Assembly (NCBI GenBank): GCA_049840735.1
Contig: JASGJN010000011.1
Coordinates: 32,001-96,000, forward strand
Length of the DNA stretch: 64,000 nt
Source of the DNA: Anaeromyxobacter sp.
GTDB taxonomy: Bacteria > Myxococcota > Myxococcia > Myxococcales > Anaeromyxobacteraceae
Reading direction: 5' to 3'
The first letter of the stretch is position 1. Each line of letters begins with the position of its first letter. Shown here one piece after another: positions 49,686 to 59,203 of the stretch. The notes under the pieces are model-generated. The model was not told the origin of the DNA. It ran no database searches and was given only the letters and a program-made list of their open reading frames with translations. The position numbers were made by a program, and so were the translations under genes.

Positions 49686-50736
49686 CTACTTCTTGGCGAC
49701 GCCCCCGCCCAGCTCCTCGTCGATGACCTTCTTGAACTGCTCGAGCGGGAGGGCGCCGGAGAAGAAGCGGCCGTTGATGACGAAGGCCGGCGTGCCGCTC
49801 ACGCCAATCTCCTCGCCCGCGTCCACGTGGGCCTGGACCACCTTGGCCTTGTCGCCGCCGTCCAGGCACTTGTCGAACTTGTCGCCGTCCAGCGACAGCT
49901 CGCGGGCGTAGGCCTTCAGCCGGTCCACGGCCAGGTCGCCGTTCACGGCGAAGAGCTTCGCGTGCATCTCCCAGTACTTGCCCTGGTCCTCGGCGCAGTA
50001 GGCCGCCTCGGAGGCCTTCTGGGCCAGCGAGTGCATGGGCAGCGGGAAGTCGCGGTACACCAGCCGGACCTTGTCCTTGTACTCCTGCAGCACCTGCTTC
50101 ACGACCGGCTCGGCGCGGGCGCAGTAGGGGCACTGGAAGTCGGAGAACTCGACGATGGTGACCTTGGCGCCGGAGGGGCCGGTGCTCGGGCCCTCGGCCT
50201 TCACCTTCACCGGCTCGGGCTTGTAGTCGCCCATCAGGATCTTCGACGCCGGCCTTGTCCTTGAGGTCCTTCAGGTACTTCTCGCCGGCCTGCGAGGCCT
50301 TCTGCTTCGTCACGTACTCGGCGATCTGGTCCCGCACCTGCTCGTAGGGCGGCAGCTGCTGCCCGCTCATCGCCGCCTGCTGGTAGAGCATCCTCAGCTC
50401 GTCCTCGCTGGGCGGCTGGACGGAGGCGGCCATCTCCTCCTGGATCTTCTTCTTGTAGTCCTCCACCGACAGGCCGGCGTCCTTGGCGTTCTTCTCGAGC
50501 ATCCGGTCGATGACCAGGCGCTCCAGGACCTGCCGGCGGGCGTTCCAGACCTGCTCCTGGTGCTCGCGCTCCATGCCGGCGAGCTGGCCGCGCGCCTTCT
50601 TGTCGAGCTCGGCGGAGGTGATCTTCTGGCCGCCGATCTTGGCGACCACGTCGGAGTCGGCCTTGGAGCGGCAGGCGGCGGCGGCGCCGGCGACGAGCAC
50701 GAGCGCGCCGATCAGCAAACGATGACGGTTCTGCAT
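49686..50736 (-). CDS. DsbA/thioredoxin-fold lipoprotein with SurA-like N-terminus; frameshift near 50242
   Basis: EFSDFQCPYC, DFPL..H, GTP; lipobox AAAC. Confidence 0.9.
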
Positions 50737-50927: not shown

Positions 50928-51554
50928 TCAGCCGATCAGCGCGCCCGAGCCGGAGAAGGCGATCACCCGCGCCGGCACGCCCACCGCCACCCCGCGCTCC
51001 GGCACGTGCGAGACCACCAGCGAGTTGGCGCCGATGACCGCGCCGTCCCCCACCTGCACCGGACCGGACAAGGTCGCCTTGGGCCCGACCCAGACCCGGT
51101 CGCCCAGCCTGGGCGTGCCGCGGCGGACGGTGCCGCCGATGCCCAGCGTGACGCCCTGCGACAGGTTGCACTCGCGGCCGATCACGCTCCCCGGCGCGAT
51201 CCAGATGCCGCCGGAGTGGCCGATGTAGAGGCCGGGGCCGATGCGCGCCGAGGGCGCGATGGTGATGCCGATGGCCAGGCGGATGGTCTCGCGCACCAGC
51301 GCGAAGGGCCACTTGAGCGCCAGCCGCAGCGGCGTGGGCGCCTCCTCCTGCAGGTAGCGGCCGAAGCGGTACAGCCCGGTGGCCCAGATGCCCTCGGTCT
51401 GGGTGACGATCCGCAGCCGCTCCCAGGTGCCCTGGGCCCGCGCGTACTTGAAGTAGCGGTTCACGTCGGCGCGGAACGCCTCCCACGCGCCCGGCTCCGG
51501 ACCGGCGCCGCCGCCCCGGTCCGCCTCCGGCGACCCCGGGGCCGCGCCGCTCAC
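50928..51554 (-). CDS. CysE/WcaB-like left-handed beta-helix acyltransferase
   Basis: ARIGPGLYIGHSGGI, QGVTLG, IGANSLV, GVPAR; GTGA overlap with the carrier protein gene. Confidence 0.88.
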   Translation of the reverse strand: MSGAAPGSPEADRGGGAGPEPGAWEAFRADVNRYFKYARAQGTWERLRIVTQTEGIWATGLYRFGRYLQEEAPTPLRLALKWPFALVRETIRLAIGITIAPSARIGPGLYIGHSGGIWIAPGSVIGRECNLSQGVTLGIGGTVRRGTPRLGDRVWVGPKATLSGPVQVGDGAVIGANSLVVSHVPERGVAVGVPARVIAFSGSGALIG

Positions 51555-51822
51555 GCGCCCTCCGCCGCCCGCCCGCGGGCCGCCAGCTCGCGCCGCACCG
51601 CGCCGGCCAGCCCGGCCACCGACTGGAGGTCCGCCGGCGAGCCCACCACCAGCAGATTGACGTGCCACCGCTCGTCCACGAACCCCAGGATTTGCAGCAG
51701 CCCCAGCGAGTCGATGCGCCCGGTGTCGATCAGGTTCTCGCCCGGCGAGACCCGGGCCTCCCCCCCGATCACCCGCCGCCCGATGAAGTCCGCCAGCGCG
51801 ATTCAATCTCACCGCCCGTCAT
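51551..51822 (-). CDS. Acyl/peptidyl carrier protein; frameshift near 51803
   Basis: LIDTGRIDSLGLL phosphopantetheine motif; N-terminus reconstructed as MTGGEIEIALADFI. Confidence 0.8.
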
Positions 51823-53440
51823 GTGCACCACCCCGTCCGCCATCCTCGTCCCCCCTCCGCTCCCACTGCGCCCGCAGCCGCGCGCGGTCCGCCTTCCCGG
51901 TGGACGTGCGCGGCAGCTCCTCCAGCACCTCGAACCCCGCCGGCACCATGTAGTTGGGCAGCCGCGCCGCCAGGTGGGCCCGGAGCCCCGGCGCGTCCAG
52001 CGCCGCGCCGGCGCGCGCCACCACCGAGACCACGATCCGGTTGCCCGAGGCGGGGTCGGGCAGCGGCACCGCCACCGCCTCGCGCACCGCCGGGTGGCCC
52101 GCCAGCACCGCCTCGATCTCGCCCAGCTCGACGCGGTAGCCGCGCACCTTCACCATGTGATCGCGCCGGCCGCAGAAGGTGTACGCGCCGTCCGGCCGGA
52201 GCCGCACCCGGTCGCCGGTGCAGCAGGCCACGCCCGGCCGCCCGCGCGGATCGGGCTTCAGCATGGCGGCGGTGCGGGCCGGGTCGTTCCAGTAGCCCAG
52301 CATGACGTTGCCGTCGCGCGCCCAGAGCGTGCCCTCGGCGCCGGGGCCGGTCACCTCGGCGCCGTCGTCCCCCATCACGAACGTCTCCATGTGCTCGCAG
52401 CCGATGCCGATGGGGATGGGCGCGTCGTCCCCCTCCGGCAGGACCGGCGGCACCACCTGGTAGGTGCAGACGTTGGTCTCGGTGGGGCCGAAGAGGTTCA
52501 CCAGCGTCACGTCCGGCAGCGCCCGGCGCAGCCGCCGCAGCTGCGGGGTGGGGAAGACCTCGCCGGCGAAGAAGAGCAGCCGCAGCCGCGACGGCGGCCG
52601 CGCCTCGAGCCCGCCCGCGTCCAGCAGCGCCATCAGGACCGAGGGGACCGAGTACCAGACGGTGATGCCCCACGGGTCGAGCATCCGGACCAGGTACGGC
52701 GCCAGCATCCCCTCGGTCGGGGAGATGAGCCGGACCGAGGCGCCGGCGCCCAGCGACGCGAACAGGTCGGAGATGGAGAGATCGAAGTGGAACGGCGCGT
52801 GGCTGGAGAAGACGTCGTCGGAGCGGATCTGGAAGCGGTCCTGGACCCAGCGCACGAAGGCGGAGGCGGAGGCGTGCGTGTGGGCCACGCCCTTGGGCGT
52901 GCCGGTGGAGCCGGAGGTGTAGAGGACGTAGGCCAGGTCCCCTGGATCGGGCCGGGCGGGCTCGGCCGGCGGGCAGGCCAGCGCGTCGGCCAGCGGCTCG
53001 CACGGCAGGCCGGGGGCCAGCGCGGCGGCCTCGCCCCGCCCCACCCCGTCCACCAGCACCAGGCGCGGCCGCTGCCCGGCCAGGAACTCCGCCAGCGCCG
53101 GGCGCCGCGCCGCGTCCACGATCAGCGCCGCCAGCCCGCAGTCGAGCGCGATGGTGCGCGCCCGCGGCGCCGGCGAGCGCGGGTCGATGGGCACGTAGGC
53201 GGCGCCGGCGTACAGCACCCCCAGCAGCGCCTGGGCGCAGGCCGCGGTCTTGTCCATCCACAGCCCGACCCGGTCGCCGCGCCCGATCCCCGCCTCGCGC
53301 AGCCGCGCCGCCACGCTGCAGGCGCCGCGGACGAGCGCGCCCCAGCCGAGCGCGCCGCCCGCGGCGGAGACCGCGATCTTGTCCGGGTGGGCCAGCGCGT
53401 GACCCGCCTCCAGGCACTCCACCAGCGTGCGGCGATCCAT
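51809..53440 (-). CDS. Stand-alone amino acid adenylation enzyme (PltF/RedM/DltA-like)
   Basis: AYVPID, YTSGSTGTPKG, FDLS, GPTE, TGD, GRRD..VKVRGYRVELGEIE, TGK. Confidence 0.93.
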   Translation of the reverse strand: MDRRTLVECLEAGHALAHPDKIAVSAAGGALGWGALVRGACSVAARLREAGIGRGDRVGLWMDKTAACAQALLGVLYAGAAYVPIDPRSPAPRARTIALDCGLAALIVDAARRPALAEFLAGQRPRLVLVDGVGRGEAAALAPGLPCEPLADALACPPAEPARPDPGDLAYVLYTSGSTGTPKGVAHTHASASAFVRWVQDRFQIRSDDVFSSHAPFHFDLSISDLFASLGAGASVRLISPTEGMLAPYLVRMLDPWGITVWYSVPSVLMALLDAGGLEARPPSRLRLLFFAGEVFPTPQLRRLRRALPDVTLVNLFGPTETNVCTYQVVPPVLPEGDDAPIPIGIGCEHMETFVMGDDGAEVTGPGAEGTLWARDGNVMLGYWNDPARTAAMLKPDPRGRPGVACCTGDRVRLRPDGAYTFCGRRDHMVKVRGYRVELGEIEAVLAGHPAVREAVAVPLPDPASGNRIVVSVVARAGAALDAPGLRAHLAARLPNYMVPAGFEVLEELPRTSTGKADRARLRAQWERRGDEDGGRGGAHDGR

Positions 53441-53461
53441 GCGGTGGCTCCTCAGATGTAA

Positions 53462-53620
53462 ACGGGGGCTGCGCCCCCGCCCCGCCGGCAAAGCCGTCGG
53501 GGCCCCACCCCTGCTGCGCGGGGCCCTGCGCCGTGCTCGCCGCTTCGCGGCTCCGCGCGGCTGCCCCGCGTGGAGGGGCTACGCCCCTCCCCCCTGCTTC
53601 GCAGGGGCCCCCCGCCCCGT
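53462..53620 (+). repeat. Family B repeat (53462-53514) within a multi-hairpin intergenic element
   Basis: Matches the reverse complement of 18483-18537; further short hairpins extend to about 53620. Confidence 0.7.
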
Positions 53621-53658
53621 GACGAAGTCCATCGTGTTCGCCAAGCCACGTTCACCCT

Positions 53659-54801
53659 CTACAGCCCGAGCAGCCGGGCGATGATCCGGCGCTGCATCTC
53701 GGAGGTCCCGGAGTAGATCGTGCCCGGGATGGCGTCGCGCAGCTCGCGCTCCACCCCGTACTCGGTGGTGTACCCGTACCCGCCGTGGATCTGCAGCGCC
53801 GCCAGGGCCTGCCGCACGTGGGCCTCCGACACGAACAGCTTGGCGATGCAGGCGTCCAGGGTCGCGTCGCGCCCGGCGTCCTTCAGGGCGCCGACCCGGT
53901 AGAGCAGGAGCCGCCCCGCCTCGACCGCGACCTTCATGTCCACGATGGCGCCTGCCACCGGCGGGGCCTTGGCGATGGCCTGGCCGAACTGCCGGCGCTC
54001 CTTCGCGTACGCGATGGTGTCCGTGAGCAGCCGCTCCATCGCCCCCAGGTGCGCGGCGAAGATGCAGGTCCGCTCCCACTCCATGGCCGCCCCGAACACC
54101 GCCGAGCCGGCCCCCTCCGCGCCCAGCCGGTTCCCGGCCGGCACGCGGCAGCCCTCCAGCACCACCTCGCCCATGGGCGAGGTGCGCAGCCCCATCTTGG
54201 AGACGGGATCGGAGAAGGTCAGCCCGGCCATGCCCCGCTCCACCAGGAACGCGGTCACCCCCGCCACCTTGGCGGCCGGGTCCACCGTGGCGAAGACCAC
54301 CGCCACGTCGGCCACCGGGCCGTTGGTGGCGAAGGTCTTCACGCCGTCGAGCACGTACGCGTCGCCGTCGCGCCGCGCGCGGGTGGTGAGCGCCATGGCG
54401 TCCGAGCCGGACGCCGGCTCGCTCATGGCGTGCGCCCCGATCAGCTCGCCCCGGCAGAGCGCCGGCAGCACCCGGCGGCGCAGCGGCTCCTGCGCGAAGC
54501 GGAGCAGCGGGAGCTGCACGGCCCAGAGCTGCGCGTTGAGCGAGAAGACCAGGCCGTTGTCGCGGCAGCTGCGCCCCAGCGCCTCCATGGCCAGCAAGGT
54601 GGTGGTGAGGGTCTGCCCGCTGCCGCCGTACTCGGCCGGGATGGGCAGGCCCAGGAGCCCCAGCTCGGCGCAGGCCTTCCAGCGCTCGCGGTCGAAGAGC
54701 CCGCGCCGGTCACGGTCCACCAGCCCGTCGTTCAGGGAGGCCCCGAAGGCCTCCACCGCGGCGCACAGCGCGCGCTGCTCCTCGGTCGGCTCGAAGTCCA
54801 C
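53659..54801 (-). CDS. Acyl-CoA dehydrogenase family, prolyl-carrier-protein dehydrogenase-like (PltE/RedW-like)
   Basis: EYGG.G, CRDNGLVFS, SEP.SGSDA, KMGLRTSP, RRQFG, QIHGGYG, IYSGTSE (S-G-T in place of the usual E-G-T). Confidence 0.9.
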   Translation of the reverse strand: MDFEPTEEQRALCAAVEAFGASLNDGLVDRDRRGLFDRERWKACAELGLLGLPIPAEYGGSGQTLTTTLLAMEALGRSCRDNGLVFSLNAQLWAVQLPLLRFAQEPLRRRVLPALCRGELIGAHAMSEPASGSDAMALTTRARRDGDAYVLDGVKTFATNGPVADVAVVFATVDPAAKVAGVTAFLVERGMAGLTFSDPVSKMGLRTSPMGEVVLEGCRVPAGNRLGAEGAGSAVFGAAMEWERTCIFAAHLGAMERLLTDTIAYAKERRQFGQAIAKAPPVAGAIVDMKVAVEAGRLLLYRVGALKDAGRDATLDACIAKLFVSEAHVRQALAALQIHGGYGYTTEYGVERELRDAIPGTIYSGTSEMQRRIIARLLGL

Positions 54802-54973: not shown

Positions 54974-55918
54974 ATGGCCCAGCACGAGAGGCTCGTCATC
55001 ATCGGCGGCGGTCCCGCCGGCTACACCGCGGCGCTGTACGCCGCCCGCGCCAACCTGAACCCGCTGCTGTTCGAGGGCCTGCAGCCCGGCGGGCAGCTCA
55101 CCATCACCAGCGAGGTCGAGAACTTCCCCGGCTTCCCGGAGGGGATCCTCGGCCCCGAGCTGATGGAGAAGATGAAGAAGCAGGCCGAGCGCTTCGGCAC
55201 CCGCTTCGAGACCGCCGAGATCACCCGGGTGGACCTCTCCCGCCGCCCCTTCCAGCTCTGGCAGGACGACCGGCTCTTCACCGCCGACACGGTGATCGTG
55301 GCCACTGGCGCCTCCGCCAAGTGGCTGGAGATCCCTTCCGAGAAGACCTATCAAGGCAAGGGCGTCTCCGCCTGCGCCACCTGCGACGGCTTCTTCTTCC
55401 GGGGCGTGGAGGTGGCGGTGGTGGGCGGCGGCGACACCGCCATGGAGGAGGCCCACTTCCTCACCAAGTACGCCACCAAGGTCCACGTCCTGCACCGGCG
55501 CGACGAGCTGCGCGCCTCCAAGATCATGCAGGACCGGATCCGCAAGCACCCCAAGGTCGAGCTGCACCTGGGCGTGGTGATCGACGAGATCCTGGGCGAC
55601 AGCAAGGTCGTGACCGGCGTGCGGCTCAAGGACGTGAAGGGCGGCGCCACCCGCGAGCTGCCGCTCAAGGGCGTCTTCATGGGCATCGGCCACGAGCCCA
55701 ACACCCGGCTCTTCAAGGGCCAGCTGGCCATGAACGACGTGGGTTACCTCACGGTGAAGTCGCCCTCCACGGCGACCAGCGTCCCGGGCGTCTTCGCGGC
55801 CGGCGACGTGGCCGACCCGAGCTACCGCCAGGCCATCAGCGCCGCCGGCTCGGGCTGCTGCGCCGCCATCGACGCGGAGCGGTTCCTGGGCGAGCACGCC
55901 ACCGAGCAGTGGGATTAG
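54974..55918 (+). CDS. trxB: Thioredoxin-disulfide reductase
   Basis: GGGPAG, VENFPG, CATCD, GGGDTA.EEA, HRRD. Confidence 0.97.
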   Translation: MAQHERLVIIGGGPAGYTAALYAARANLNPLLFEGLQPGGQLTITSEVENFPGFPEGILGPELMEKMKKQAERFGTRFETAEITRVDLSRRPFQLWQDDRLFTADTVIVATGASAKWLEIPSEKTYQGKGVSACATCDGFFFRGVEVAVVGGGDTAMEEAHFLTKYATKVHVLHRRDELRASKIMQDRIRKHPKVELHLGVVIDEILGDSKVVTGVRLKDVKGGATRELPLKGVFMGIGHEPNTRLFKGQLAMNDVGYLTVKSPSTATSVPGVFAAGDVADPSYRQAISAAGSGCCAAIDAERFLGEHATEQWD

Positions 55919-57629: not shown

Positions 57630-59203
57630 ATGAAGATCGCCACCCGCCTCCAGTTCTCCTTCGGCCTCCTCCTGCTCATCGTCGTGGGCCTCGGCGCCTT
57701 CGGCGCCCTGGCCATGTACAGCACCGGCGGCAAGGTGTCGGCCGCGCTGAAGAGCGCGTTCGCCGCCGACGCGGCGGTGCAGGACGTGTCCGACGCCGTC
57801 CGGCAGGCCAACATCCTGACCGATCTGCACTCCAAGGCCGGGACGATCCCGGAGTTCGACCTGGACCGGCCCGTGGACGAGACCCTGGCCACGCTGTCCA
57901 AGGCGGACCCGGCCGCGGAGCAGGAGCTGCAGCCGCTGGTGCTGGACGTCCGCAAGAAGGGCAAGGCCCTGCGCGACGCCTCCGCGAACCAGGAGTGGCA
58001 GCGCGTGGGCTCGCTCAGCCCCGCCTACAAGGTCGCCACCGACGCCCTGGAGGAGCGGCTGAAGGTGATGAGGACCGAGCGCCGCGCGGTCATCGACGAG
58101 GAGATTGACCGCTCGCGCACGCAGGCCCGGTTCTTCTGGGTGGTCTCCATCGTCGCGGTCATCCTGGGCGCCGCCTCGGTCGTCACCCTCTTCGCCTCCG
58201 TCCGCAACGGGCTCCTCCAGCCGCTGGCGCTCCTCTCCCGCACCGCCCGGCGCGTCTCGGCCGAGCGCGACCTCACCATCAAGGTCCCGGTGGCCGGCGA
58301 CGAGGAAGATCCAGGAGCTGGGCCACGCCTTCGACGGCCTGATGCTCACGCTGCGCAACATCACCGTCGAGATGCGCGGCGCCACCGACCGGCTGCTCGA
58401 GTCGGCCACCCACCTGGGCGAGGCCACCTCCGTGCACGGCGAGACCATCGCCCGCCAGGCCAGCGCCCTCGAGGAGGCGCGCCGGACCTCCAGCGTGCTG
58501 CGCGACTCCTCCCGCACCGCCGCCAGCCAGGCCGACGACGTGCTCCGCGTCGCCGAGCGCGCCGAGGAGCTGGGCCGCGACGGCGAGTCGGCCATGACCG
58601 CCAGCCTCACCGGCGTGCAGGCCATGCAGGATCAGACGCGGCAGGTGGTGGAGCGGATCGCCCGCCTGGCCTCCTCCGCGCAGCGCATCGGCGACATCAC
58701 CGCCACGGTGAAGGACCTGGCCGACCAGTCCAACGTGCTGGCCCTCAACGCCGCCATCGAGGCCTCCCGCGCCGGCGAGGCCGGCGTGGGCTTCGGCGTG
58801 GTGGCCCGCGAGATTCCGGACCCTGGCCGACCGCTCCATCCGCGCCACCGCCGAGGTGCGCACGGTGCTGGCGGAGGTCCTCGCCGGCATCCGCGACTCC
58901 GCCGCGCTGGTGGAGGCCGCCAACACCGGCCTGGAGGACGGCGCCGCCCGCACCCGCCGCCTGGGCGAGAGCCTCACCGGCCTCTCCGGCATCGTCCGCG
59001 AGAACCTGGGCGCGGTGCGCGAGATCGCCGGCGCCGTGGCCGGCCAGGACGGCGGCATCGGCCAGATCTCCAACGCCGTGGACGACCTGGCCCGCATGAT
59101 GGAGGAGACGGTCAAGTCGGTGAACACCACCGGCGACGCCGCGGGCGTGCTCCGCGAGGTCTCCGAGCAGGTGTCCTCGGCGGTGAAGGCGTTCCGGGTG
59201 TAG
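57630..59203 (+). CDS. Methyl-accepting chemotaxis protein; frameshifts near 58306 and 58815
   Basis: Two TM segments, HAMP domain, ADQSNVLALNAAIEASRAGEAG.GF.VVA.E. Confidence 0.92.

Follow-up and report, generated by a model that had tools for sequence, protein, structure and literature searches.

A conserved proline-carrier gene cassette paired with a left-handed beta-helix acyltransferase in Anaeromyxobacter: an apparently undescribed variant with a possible role in surface glycan acylation

What becomes of the acyl group made by a proline-loading gene trio when no assembly line is encoded beside it? The question is raised by four minus-strand genes at positions 50928-54801 of a 64,000-nucleotide stretch of Anaeromyxobacter sp. 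(GenBank assembly GCA_049840735.1, contig JASGJN010000011.1, positions 32,001 to 96,000; the whole stretch is hereafter the window). They encode a dehydrogenase, an adenylation ligase, a carrier protein and a left-handed beta-helix (LbH) acyltransferase, and no polyketide synthase (PKS) or nonribosomal peptide synthetase (NRPS) gene lies near them in the window. The cassette is a real, conserved and apparently undescribed variant with a putative glycan role, and its best reading, which we consider moderately likely, is that a carrier-fed pyrrole-carbonyl or pyrroline-carbonyl group acylates a surface glycan; the substrate, its oxidation state, the use of the carrier by the LbH enzyme or by membrane acyltransferases of the AT3 family, the acceptor and every chemical step are what we infer.

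The recurrence of the four-gene block is not due to chance. The same gene order was found in 8 of the 9 loci compared, among several differing flanking contexts. A tRNA gene adjoins the cassette at one of nine loci checked for it. Across the 363 genomes of the order, an LbH profile matched 19 at E<=1e-45, and in the 13 with a close match (E<1e-78) the carrier and ligase genes lie directly upstream without exception, while the six genomes with weaker matches have no carrier and ligase genes in that position. The acyltransferase is conserved with the trio; an earlier note drawn up from the letters of the window had named the lack of such conservation as a refutation. Among 80 metagenome loci the carrier gene lies upstream in 10 of the best 11, the eleventh having only 100 bp of upstream DNA; the trio is absent from the DNA at hand in the other 69, many of whose stretches are short. 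Within the genus the cassette is patchy (7 of 37 genomes), and a plasmid search returned six distant matches.

The trio very probably makes a proline-derived ring thioester, and its earlier assignment to prolyl/pyrrolyl-carrier families was borne out by the family matches of ligase, dehydrogenase and carrier. The ligase, a single-domain A protein adjoining the carrier, exceeds the TIGR01733 cut-off, and the best matches of its pocket region in the Protein Data Bank (PDB) are 6o6e (E 6e-35) and 7thn (E 1e-23), followed by DltA (E 2e-18); we take the first two to be PltF and PigI, in keeping with the partner names PltL and PigG among the PDB matches of the carrier. Alignment to the solved proline ligases gave the same pocket code, D-L-S-Y-F-A-L-V-C-K, that had been read by hand. 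Six of eight positions fit the published consensus of stand-alone proline ligases, L(L/F)YLALVC, from which Ser239 and Phe299 depart; in a model of CcbC, positions 236, 301 and 330 are the only variable residues that contact proline (PMC3874040; this and the other published sources are cited from excerpts). In the best 119 of 353 homologues these three positions are L/A/V without exception (119/119), and residue 239 is Ser in 104, Ala in 5, Cys in 3 and the canonical Leu in seven close homologues. In a quick tree the ligases of cassette loci form a clade of their own (SH-aLRT 100), apart from PKS-linked ligases, and all 16 clade loci in this tree adjoin an LbH or an AT3 gene; names among the 353 homologues extend the clade to Verrucomicrobia, Rokubacteria and Krumholzibacteria. 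At two loci (L084, L085) a carrier-dehydrogenase-ligase set has a pocket code quite unlike this one, DLINMAVSSK, and its neighbours are genes for an MFS-type transporter and for a glutamine amidotransferase.

The nearest solved and curated families of the dehydrogenase are prolyl-carrier dehydrogenases (PigA/RedW/PltE/AnaB). Its best PDB match is 4irn, titled 'Prolyl-ACP dehydrogenase' (E 3e-115), and its NCBIfam scores are 404 bits for PigA against a cut-off of 500 and 387 for RedW against 650, both below. It has the WER and YSGT motifs of the prolyl-type family, the Glu of WER/YER being presumably the catalytic residue of these enzymes. The IYSGT motif, which the earlier note had singled out as unusual, is present and ordinary: 4irn has YSGT and all 36 prolyl-type homologues have S-G-(T/S), which rules out its reading as a deviation, while EGT occurs in two of three ordinary acyl-CoA dehydrogenases of the same tree. 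The dehydrogenases of cassette loci form one clade (SH-aLRT 100, quick tree) separate from the PKS-linked ones. Among the 13 close-LbH genomes the gene is intact and adjacent in 11, one of them with a ligase split over two contigs; of the other two copies one is cut by a contig end and the other, in genome G008, is internally deleted. The same form was seen at locus L025 (7862-8047), where a 61-aa in-frame remnant of the dehydrogenase stands with a retained ligase, carrier and LbH gene.

A profile built from ten intact carriers of relatives has as its best PDB matches prolyl/pyrrolyl-type carriers (6cxt_A, 2my5, PigG and PltL); the window carrier is 54-56% identical to such intact carriers, and Pfam gave no match for the piece encoded in the window itself.

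Which acyl group the carrier holds is a separate matter, and here an alternative that we find rather unlikely, and which is compatible with the best reading, is that the Ser239 pocket serves hydroxyproline, pipecolate or an alkylproline, or that the pathway stops at pyrroline or at plain prolyl. The replacement of Leu/Phe239 by Ser, Ala or Cys in 112 of those 119 best homologues speaks for it, as does the dehydrogenase's match to 4irn, which we take to be AnaB, an enzyme presumably yielding pyrroline; so too does the retention of ligase, carrier and LbH in G008 despite the deleted dehydrogenase. Against these stand the invariant L/A/V residues and the seven close homologues with Leu239, the lack of any analogue-making gene accompanying the cassette, and a second prolyl dehydrogenase elsewhere in G008, situated in a type II PKS-like cluster. 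The earlier idea that Ser239 may signal a proline analogue is therefore possible and not favoured, because the three modelled proline-contact residues are unchanged; Ser239 is a trait of the clade. Judging from the pocket, proline is the best guess for the ligase substrate and an analogue a live rival.

The product of the fourth gene matches Pfam Hexapep, scores below the cut-offs of the families EpsC (102 bits against 150), CysE (98 against 211) and WcaB (40 against 195), and a model of a relative's LbH protein (pLDDT 92) resembles serine acetyltransferases (TM 0.70). It has GH and GTP where CysE has DH and DRHP, presumably the serine-binding motifs of that enzyme, and a CysE function was rejected on account of the missing motifs and the sub-cut-off score. 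Trio-linked LbH proteins carry the clade-specific residues W122, W159 and L183 (20/20, as compared with 0/75, 3/75 and 4/75 in others), and also G163K/N and K165T, which replace the G-x-K found in most others, whose Lys we take to bind CoA; in the LbH tree the support of the trio-linked group is only 70%. On the carrier side, the residue before (V/I)DS is Arg in 13/13 LbH-linked carriers and Leu in AT3-linked ones, and these residues on both sides may hint at a mutual adaptation of carrier and LbH enzyme. A complex predicted for the LbH trimer and carrier of locus L024 scored 0.50, against 0.02 for the best control (the controls being proteins other than carriers), with runs sharing at least 94% of contacts and a partner pLDDT of at least 76. 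The mark for such predictions is reached by 116 of 157 solved pairs and 2 of 215 mismatched ones, and at scores of 0.60 or less by only 18 solved pairs and both mismatches. The model weakly supports the pairing, and its score may stem from likeness to solved complexes of LbH enzymes with acyl carrier protein (ACP), of which LpxD-ACP is one. Another carrier-linked LbH enzyme was observed at L150:7743-10215, its gene standing in a row with one for an ACP and one for a ligase that resembles class II tRNA synthetases.

A second acyltransferase recurs in the clade. Three Ser239 loci without LbH (G240, G039 and G232) have an AT3 gene directly upstream of the dehydrogenase, and in G240 a search for LbH at E<=1e-20 came back empty. 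The genomes with a close AT3 homologue (E<1e-60) number 5 of 401 in the phylum, 3 of 37 in the genus and 1 of 5 among further carriers, and each of them has the trio; the count of 5/401, like one row in each tree group, includes the unpublished G232, the arrangement being seen also in G240 and G039. Two more distant homologues belong to non-carriers, and one of the two comes after genes for an AMP-ligase and an ACP-like protein. The window genome has such an AT3 gene (L281, C22:539029-540120), 50% identical, intact and unlinked to the cassette, with unrelated neighbours. The idea that AT3 simply replaces LbH had to be revised, since four genomes have both. AT3 occurs in only four of 12 LbH-type carriers tested and the two AT3-linked dehydrogenases of the tree form one nested branch; AT3 would thus be an optional second outlet, and its exchange for LbH one event, not three. 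The AT3-dehydrogenase-ligase-carrier block of G039 (L272:1035-5392) has a GC content of 41-46% and lies directly behind tRNA-Thr, which points to horizontal gain. At L283:8120-11051 a gene distantly homologous to this AT3 shares one run with those for an AMP-ligase and an ACP-like protein.

Onto what would these acyltransferases place the group? For EpsC and ExoN, a role in the O-acetylation of myxobacterial polysaccharide precursors has been proposed (PMC7484181), the WcaB-like VpsG is assigned to the acetylation of Vibrio polysaccharide, already on a lipid-linked disaccharide (PMC13463779), and surface glycans are the main targets of AT3s (PMC9558356). The nearest non-trio relatives of the LbH enzyme have glycan genes beside them in 13 of 18 annotated loci, which were picked for long contigs, and one Ser239/LbH lineage (L096, L098) adjoins Wzy, Wza and Wzc genes. 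In a separate assembly, seen at two further loci (L039, L218), a chain-length gene is followed by a canonical proline trio together with an LbH gene of WcaF-like type. As for co-occurrence across the genus, one chain-length protein is present in 29 of 37 genomes, including all seven carriers, and another in 22 of 37, two carriers being among those in which it was not found.

Related ligases were also found in a second phylum (G415, titled Acidobacteriota), in 27 of 401 genomes. An LbH (4), an AT3 (4) or an MBOAT-like gene (2, one of them weak) lies beside the ligase in 10 of 20 loci, and at seven of these ten there are, in addition, genes for glycosyltransferases, export or sugar transferases. 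As a baseline, 66 of the 5418 genes of the window genome (1.2%) have an acyltransferase of these kinds no more than 3 kb away, a rough value obtained with small home-made profiles and probably an underestimate. Two long membrane-type proteins, encoded at L220 and L221, resembled MBOATs on visual inspection and, having no family match, were left out of the count. Flavin halogenase-like genes occur at three second-phylum AT3 loci; at L211, L213 and L216, of which two lie inside glycan clusters, the trio or ligase is accompanied by genes of flavin halogenase type and by an AT3 gene or a pair of them, which makes these loci candidates for halopyrrole decoration. At L214 and L215 the order NusG-Wza-Wzc-LbH-trio-sugar transferase is followed by an adenylation-peptidyl carrier protein (A-PCP) gene, and L214 also has a P450-bearing NRPS. 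It is possible, and in our view still short of probable, that pyrrole-2-carbonyl esters, halogenated in some lineages, adorn the surface glycans of bacteria from two or more phyla, by means of an antibiotic-type proline/carrier module feeding three unrelated acyltransferase folds (LbH, AT3 and MBOAT) that have switched from acyl-CoA to a heteroaromatic donor on a carrier, the Ser239 cassette of myxobacteria being the minimal stand-alone form.

Several observations weigh against the glycan explanation. Just one lineage of the clade adjoins a glycan cluster; the window cassette and most of its relatives sit among housekeeping genes, without a nearby glycan gene; the LbH gene of the window genome is not located in a polysaccharide cluster; and no glycan cluster tracks the cassette across the 37 genomes of the genus. 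The locus, genome and metagenome sets overlap and their members are kin, so that the counts given above lack independence; common descent alone may explain the signature residues of carrier and LbH. The infrequent AT3 and its single exchange for LbH count on the same side, as does G008, which kept three cassette genes and lost the dehydrogenase. The 20 loci of the second phylum, from 27 genomes, were picked partly for visible neighbours; 10 of them have no such acyltransferase, and L214 and L215 also have NRPS genes. Finally, the AT3 donors that have been tested are acyl-CoAs rather than ACPs, and some AT3s acylate antibiotics (PMC9558356).

It may be that trio and LbH cooperate on a small-molecule acceptor, for which a free sugar, a glycolipid, an amine or an alcohol would qualify; the product would be an ester or amide that is secreted or serves as a signal, and not a decorated polymer. 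The distance of most cassettes from glycan genes would agree with this, as would the acylation of antibiotics by AT3s just cited, the LbH fold, which is that of serine acetyltransferases, and the precedent of clorobiocin, in which a pyrrolyl group is placed on the sugar of a small molecule (PMC11218499). We hold it to be unlikely, given that in the loci read the cassette is accompanied neither by an exporter or glycosyltransferase gene nor by any further gene for tailoring, that glycan clusters house most of the closest relatives of the LbH enzyme and that related trios recur in such clusters.

Under the glycan explanation, the carrier would be primed first. The ligase would then likely adenylate L-proline and load it onto the carrier, and the flavoenzyme would likely oxidise the prolyl thioester to a pyrrole-2-carbonyl (or pyrroline-carbonyl) thioester. 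The LbH trimer, assisted by its His, would probably move this acyl group, instead of acetyl, to a hydroxyl on the sugar of a building block for surface polysaccharide. As with WcaB-like enzymes, this would likely take place on the cytoplasmic side, the repeat unit being lipid-linked. The membrane AT3 would probably unload that carrier too, either in addition to LbH or in its stead.

Whether the cassette works in the window genome is a further matter, since the layout there (Table 1) differs in some details from that of relatives. Four same-strand genes, the last three overlapping, had been described before, and the coordinates agree, with overlaps of 35 nt between ligase and carrier and 4 nt (GTGA) between carrier and LbH. 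The housekeeping flanks also stand as first read: trxB lies divergently upstream, and a SurA/DsbA-like gene, together with ispG, downstream. The dehydrogenase and ligase genes are separated by 218 bp, as compared with 10-17 bp in most relatives, and the gap contains a repeat with internal direct and inverted repeats, which occurs at 44 genomic places with up to 97% identity; three other copies are 95-97% identical, suggesting a recent spread. Neither this repeat nor the base missing from the carrier gene figured in the earlier note. A promoter scan gave no sigma-70 match, and two terminator-like matches of the same scan fall within the ligase gene.

Table 1. Cassette genes, intervening repeat and flanking genes, in positions of the window
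Feature	Position	Strand	Remarks
Prolyl-carrier-protein dehydrogenase, acyl-CoA dehydrogenase fold	53659..54801	-	380 aa, GTG start
Stand-alone amino-acid adenylation enzyme, proline type, code DLSYFALVCK	51809..53440	-	543 aa
Peptidyl carrier protein, GRIDS motif, one base short near 51800	51551..51843	-	
LbH acyltransferase, CysE/EpsC/WcaB fold	50928..51554	-	~208 aa, His kept
Palindromic dispersed repeat of ~160 bp, like a miniature inverted-repeat transposable element (MITE) or a repetitive extragenic palindrome (REP), outside conserved cassette	53461..53620	.	
trxB (name read from sequence), divergent upstream flank, outside cassette	54974..55918	+	86% identity to trxB-type gene flanking the L021 cassette
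SurA/DsbA-like gene, downstream flank, outside cassette	49686..50736	-	Pfam Thioredoxin_4/DSBA

The carrier gene has a single-base gap at its 5' end when aligned with three relatives, and this frameshift, with the repeat between the first two genes, would suit a cassette that is decaying and productless in the window genome, whatever the family does elsewhere. Frameshifts also split two of seven neighbouring genes tested, the SurA/DsbA-like gene (two frames, as opposed to one in an intact relative) and a chemoreceptor gene at 57630-59203. The assembly is indel-prone, and because of these split neighbours an assembly error in the carrier gene is likely. The other three cassette genes are full length with their motifs intact, and the unlinked AT3 gene is intact as well, so that we consider decay improbable.

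The absence of a PKS or NRPS, as stated in the earlier note, holds at the locus and not genome-wide. A hybrid PKS/NRPS with a type II thioesterase and several frameshifts is encoded elsewhere in the window genome (G000:C20:18000-65800; L249, L250), where the first ketosynthase (KS) retains the Cys residue, with no loading domain in evidence, a further point against the favoured explanation. A second, canonical proline ligase and carrier lie on C22 (L050; G000:C22:863000-869500), and with the C20 genes they make a consumer acting in trans possible in this genome. Two KS-like matches and a gene for a B12 radical-SAM enzyme also fall in the L050 region, which has no dehydrogenase and a GC content of 62%, the lower value indicating an island or a misassembly. 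In the same genus, the proline trios of L044 and L045 are joined by a further ACP, a reductase and a pair of KS genes, and at L045 by a B12 radical-SAM gene as well; these are type II PKS-like clusters whose starter is probably a pyrrolyl group.

A cognate assembly line elsewhere in the genome, which the earlier note had named as a possible consumer of the carrier, is lacking in the closed, single-contig genome G021: beside an intact cassette it has one ketosynthase match (a 444-aa frame) and one AcpS-sized phosphopantetheinyl transferase, and neither a modular PKS nor a condensation domain was found across it. CloN2 of the clorobiocin pathway has a KS-III-like fold and CloN7 an alpha/beta-hydrolase fold; because G021 has four FabH-like genes, a CloN2-type consumer may exist there, which also counts against the explanation that we favour. 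A conserved FabH-like consumer near the cassette was rejected, the gene near L026 having no close counterpart in the window genome (29% at best). Delivery of a starter unit in trans, from the trio to a FabH-like enzyme or a PKS/NRPS encoded elsewhere, with LbH an ordinary acetyl-CoA-dependent tailoring or self-protection enzyme, would be the textbook role of such trios, found in other myxobacterial loci, and would suit the C20 genes and the FabH-like genes of G021, yet it is the most doubtful alternative in view of G021's missing assembly line, that distant FabH-like counterpart, the separation of PKS-linked ligases and dehydrogenases from the cassette clade, and the LbH or AT3 gene beside all 16 clade loci. 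We consider it likely that an acyltransferase, and not an assembly line, consumes the acyl-loaded carrier.

If surface glycans are indeed acylated in this way, a heteroaromatic acyl group would be added to the known chemistry of the bacterial envelope, and peptidyl carriers would be seen to serve as acyl donors to a CysE/WcaB-fold enzyme and to an AT3. Many orphan proline-carrier trios, otherwise filed in genome mining as broken antibiotic clusters, would gain a role, and the ester could alter phage adsorption, biofilm, spore-coat properties or metal binding. With four small genes and cultured soil strains (L024 and L026, by the titles of their records), the cassette is directly testable. Among the top-ranked matches of loosely matched literature searches, we found no paper on the cassette or on pyrrole-acylated envelope glycans.

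Compared with known systems, the cassette shares its ligase, carrier and flavin dehydrogenase families with the thiotemplated pyrrole-2-carboxyl pathways (PltF/PltL/PltE, PigI/PigG/PigA, RedM/RedO/RedW, CloN4/CloN5/CloN3 and AnaC/AnaD/AnaB). It differs from them in forming its own clade, in Ser239 and often Phe299, in the GR(V/I)DS motif of its carrier and in dehydrogenase scores below the PigA/RedW cut-offs; it has no PKS, halogenase or condensing enzyme, and is always paired with LbH or AT3. The Dlt system (DltA/DltC/DltB/DltD) and AlmEFG of Vibrio likewise use a ligase, a carrier and an acyltransferase to bring an amino-acid-derived acyl group to the envelope, as is predicted for the cassette, which departs from both in its proline-type pocket, an extra oxidation step, and LbH or AT3 instead of MBOAT/DltD. 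Its ligase scores 221 bits for DltA against a cut-off of 560, no MBOAT or SGNH gene was found in the cassette or the clade loci compared, and since MBOAT and DltD are missing the cassette stands outside the Dlt family; of the Dlt-like envelope decoration first suggested, the decoration is retained, comparative context favouring glycan acylation with an acceptor that we infer, and the Dlt kinship is not. Clorobiocin biosynthesis (CloN2, CloN1, CloN6, CloN7) resembles it in that a carrier-bound, proline-derived pyrrole-2-carbonyl ends as the ester of a sugar hydroxyl, there on an antibiotic glycoside (noviose) and by way of a second carrier, CloN2 and CloN7 (PMC11218499), where the cassette has one carrier and LbH or AT3. 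Neither a second carrier nor CloN2 or CloN7 was found beside the trio in the loci compared, only LbH or AT3 being conserved there. With the acetyltransferases WcaB, EpsC, ExoN and VpsG, lastly, the LbH enzyme shares a CysE-like helical domain, a beta-helix and a conserved His (PMC7484181; PMC13463779), and it is set apart from the WcaB/EpsC types by its tie to a carrier-loading trio, its signature changes and a presumed non-acetyl donor.

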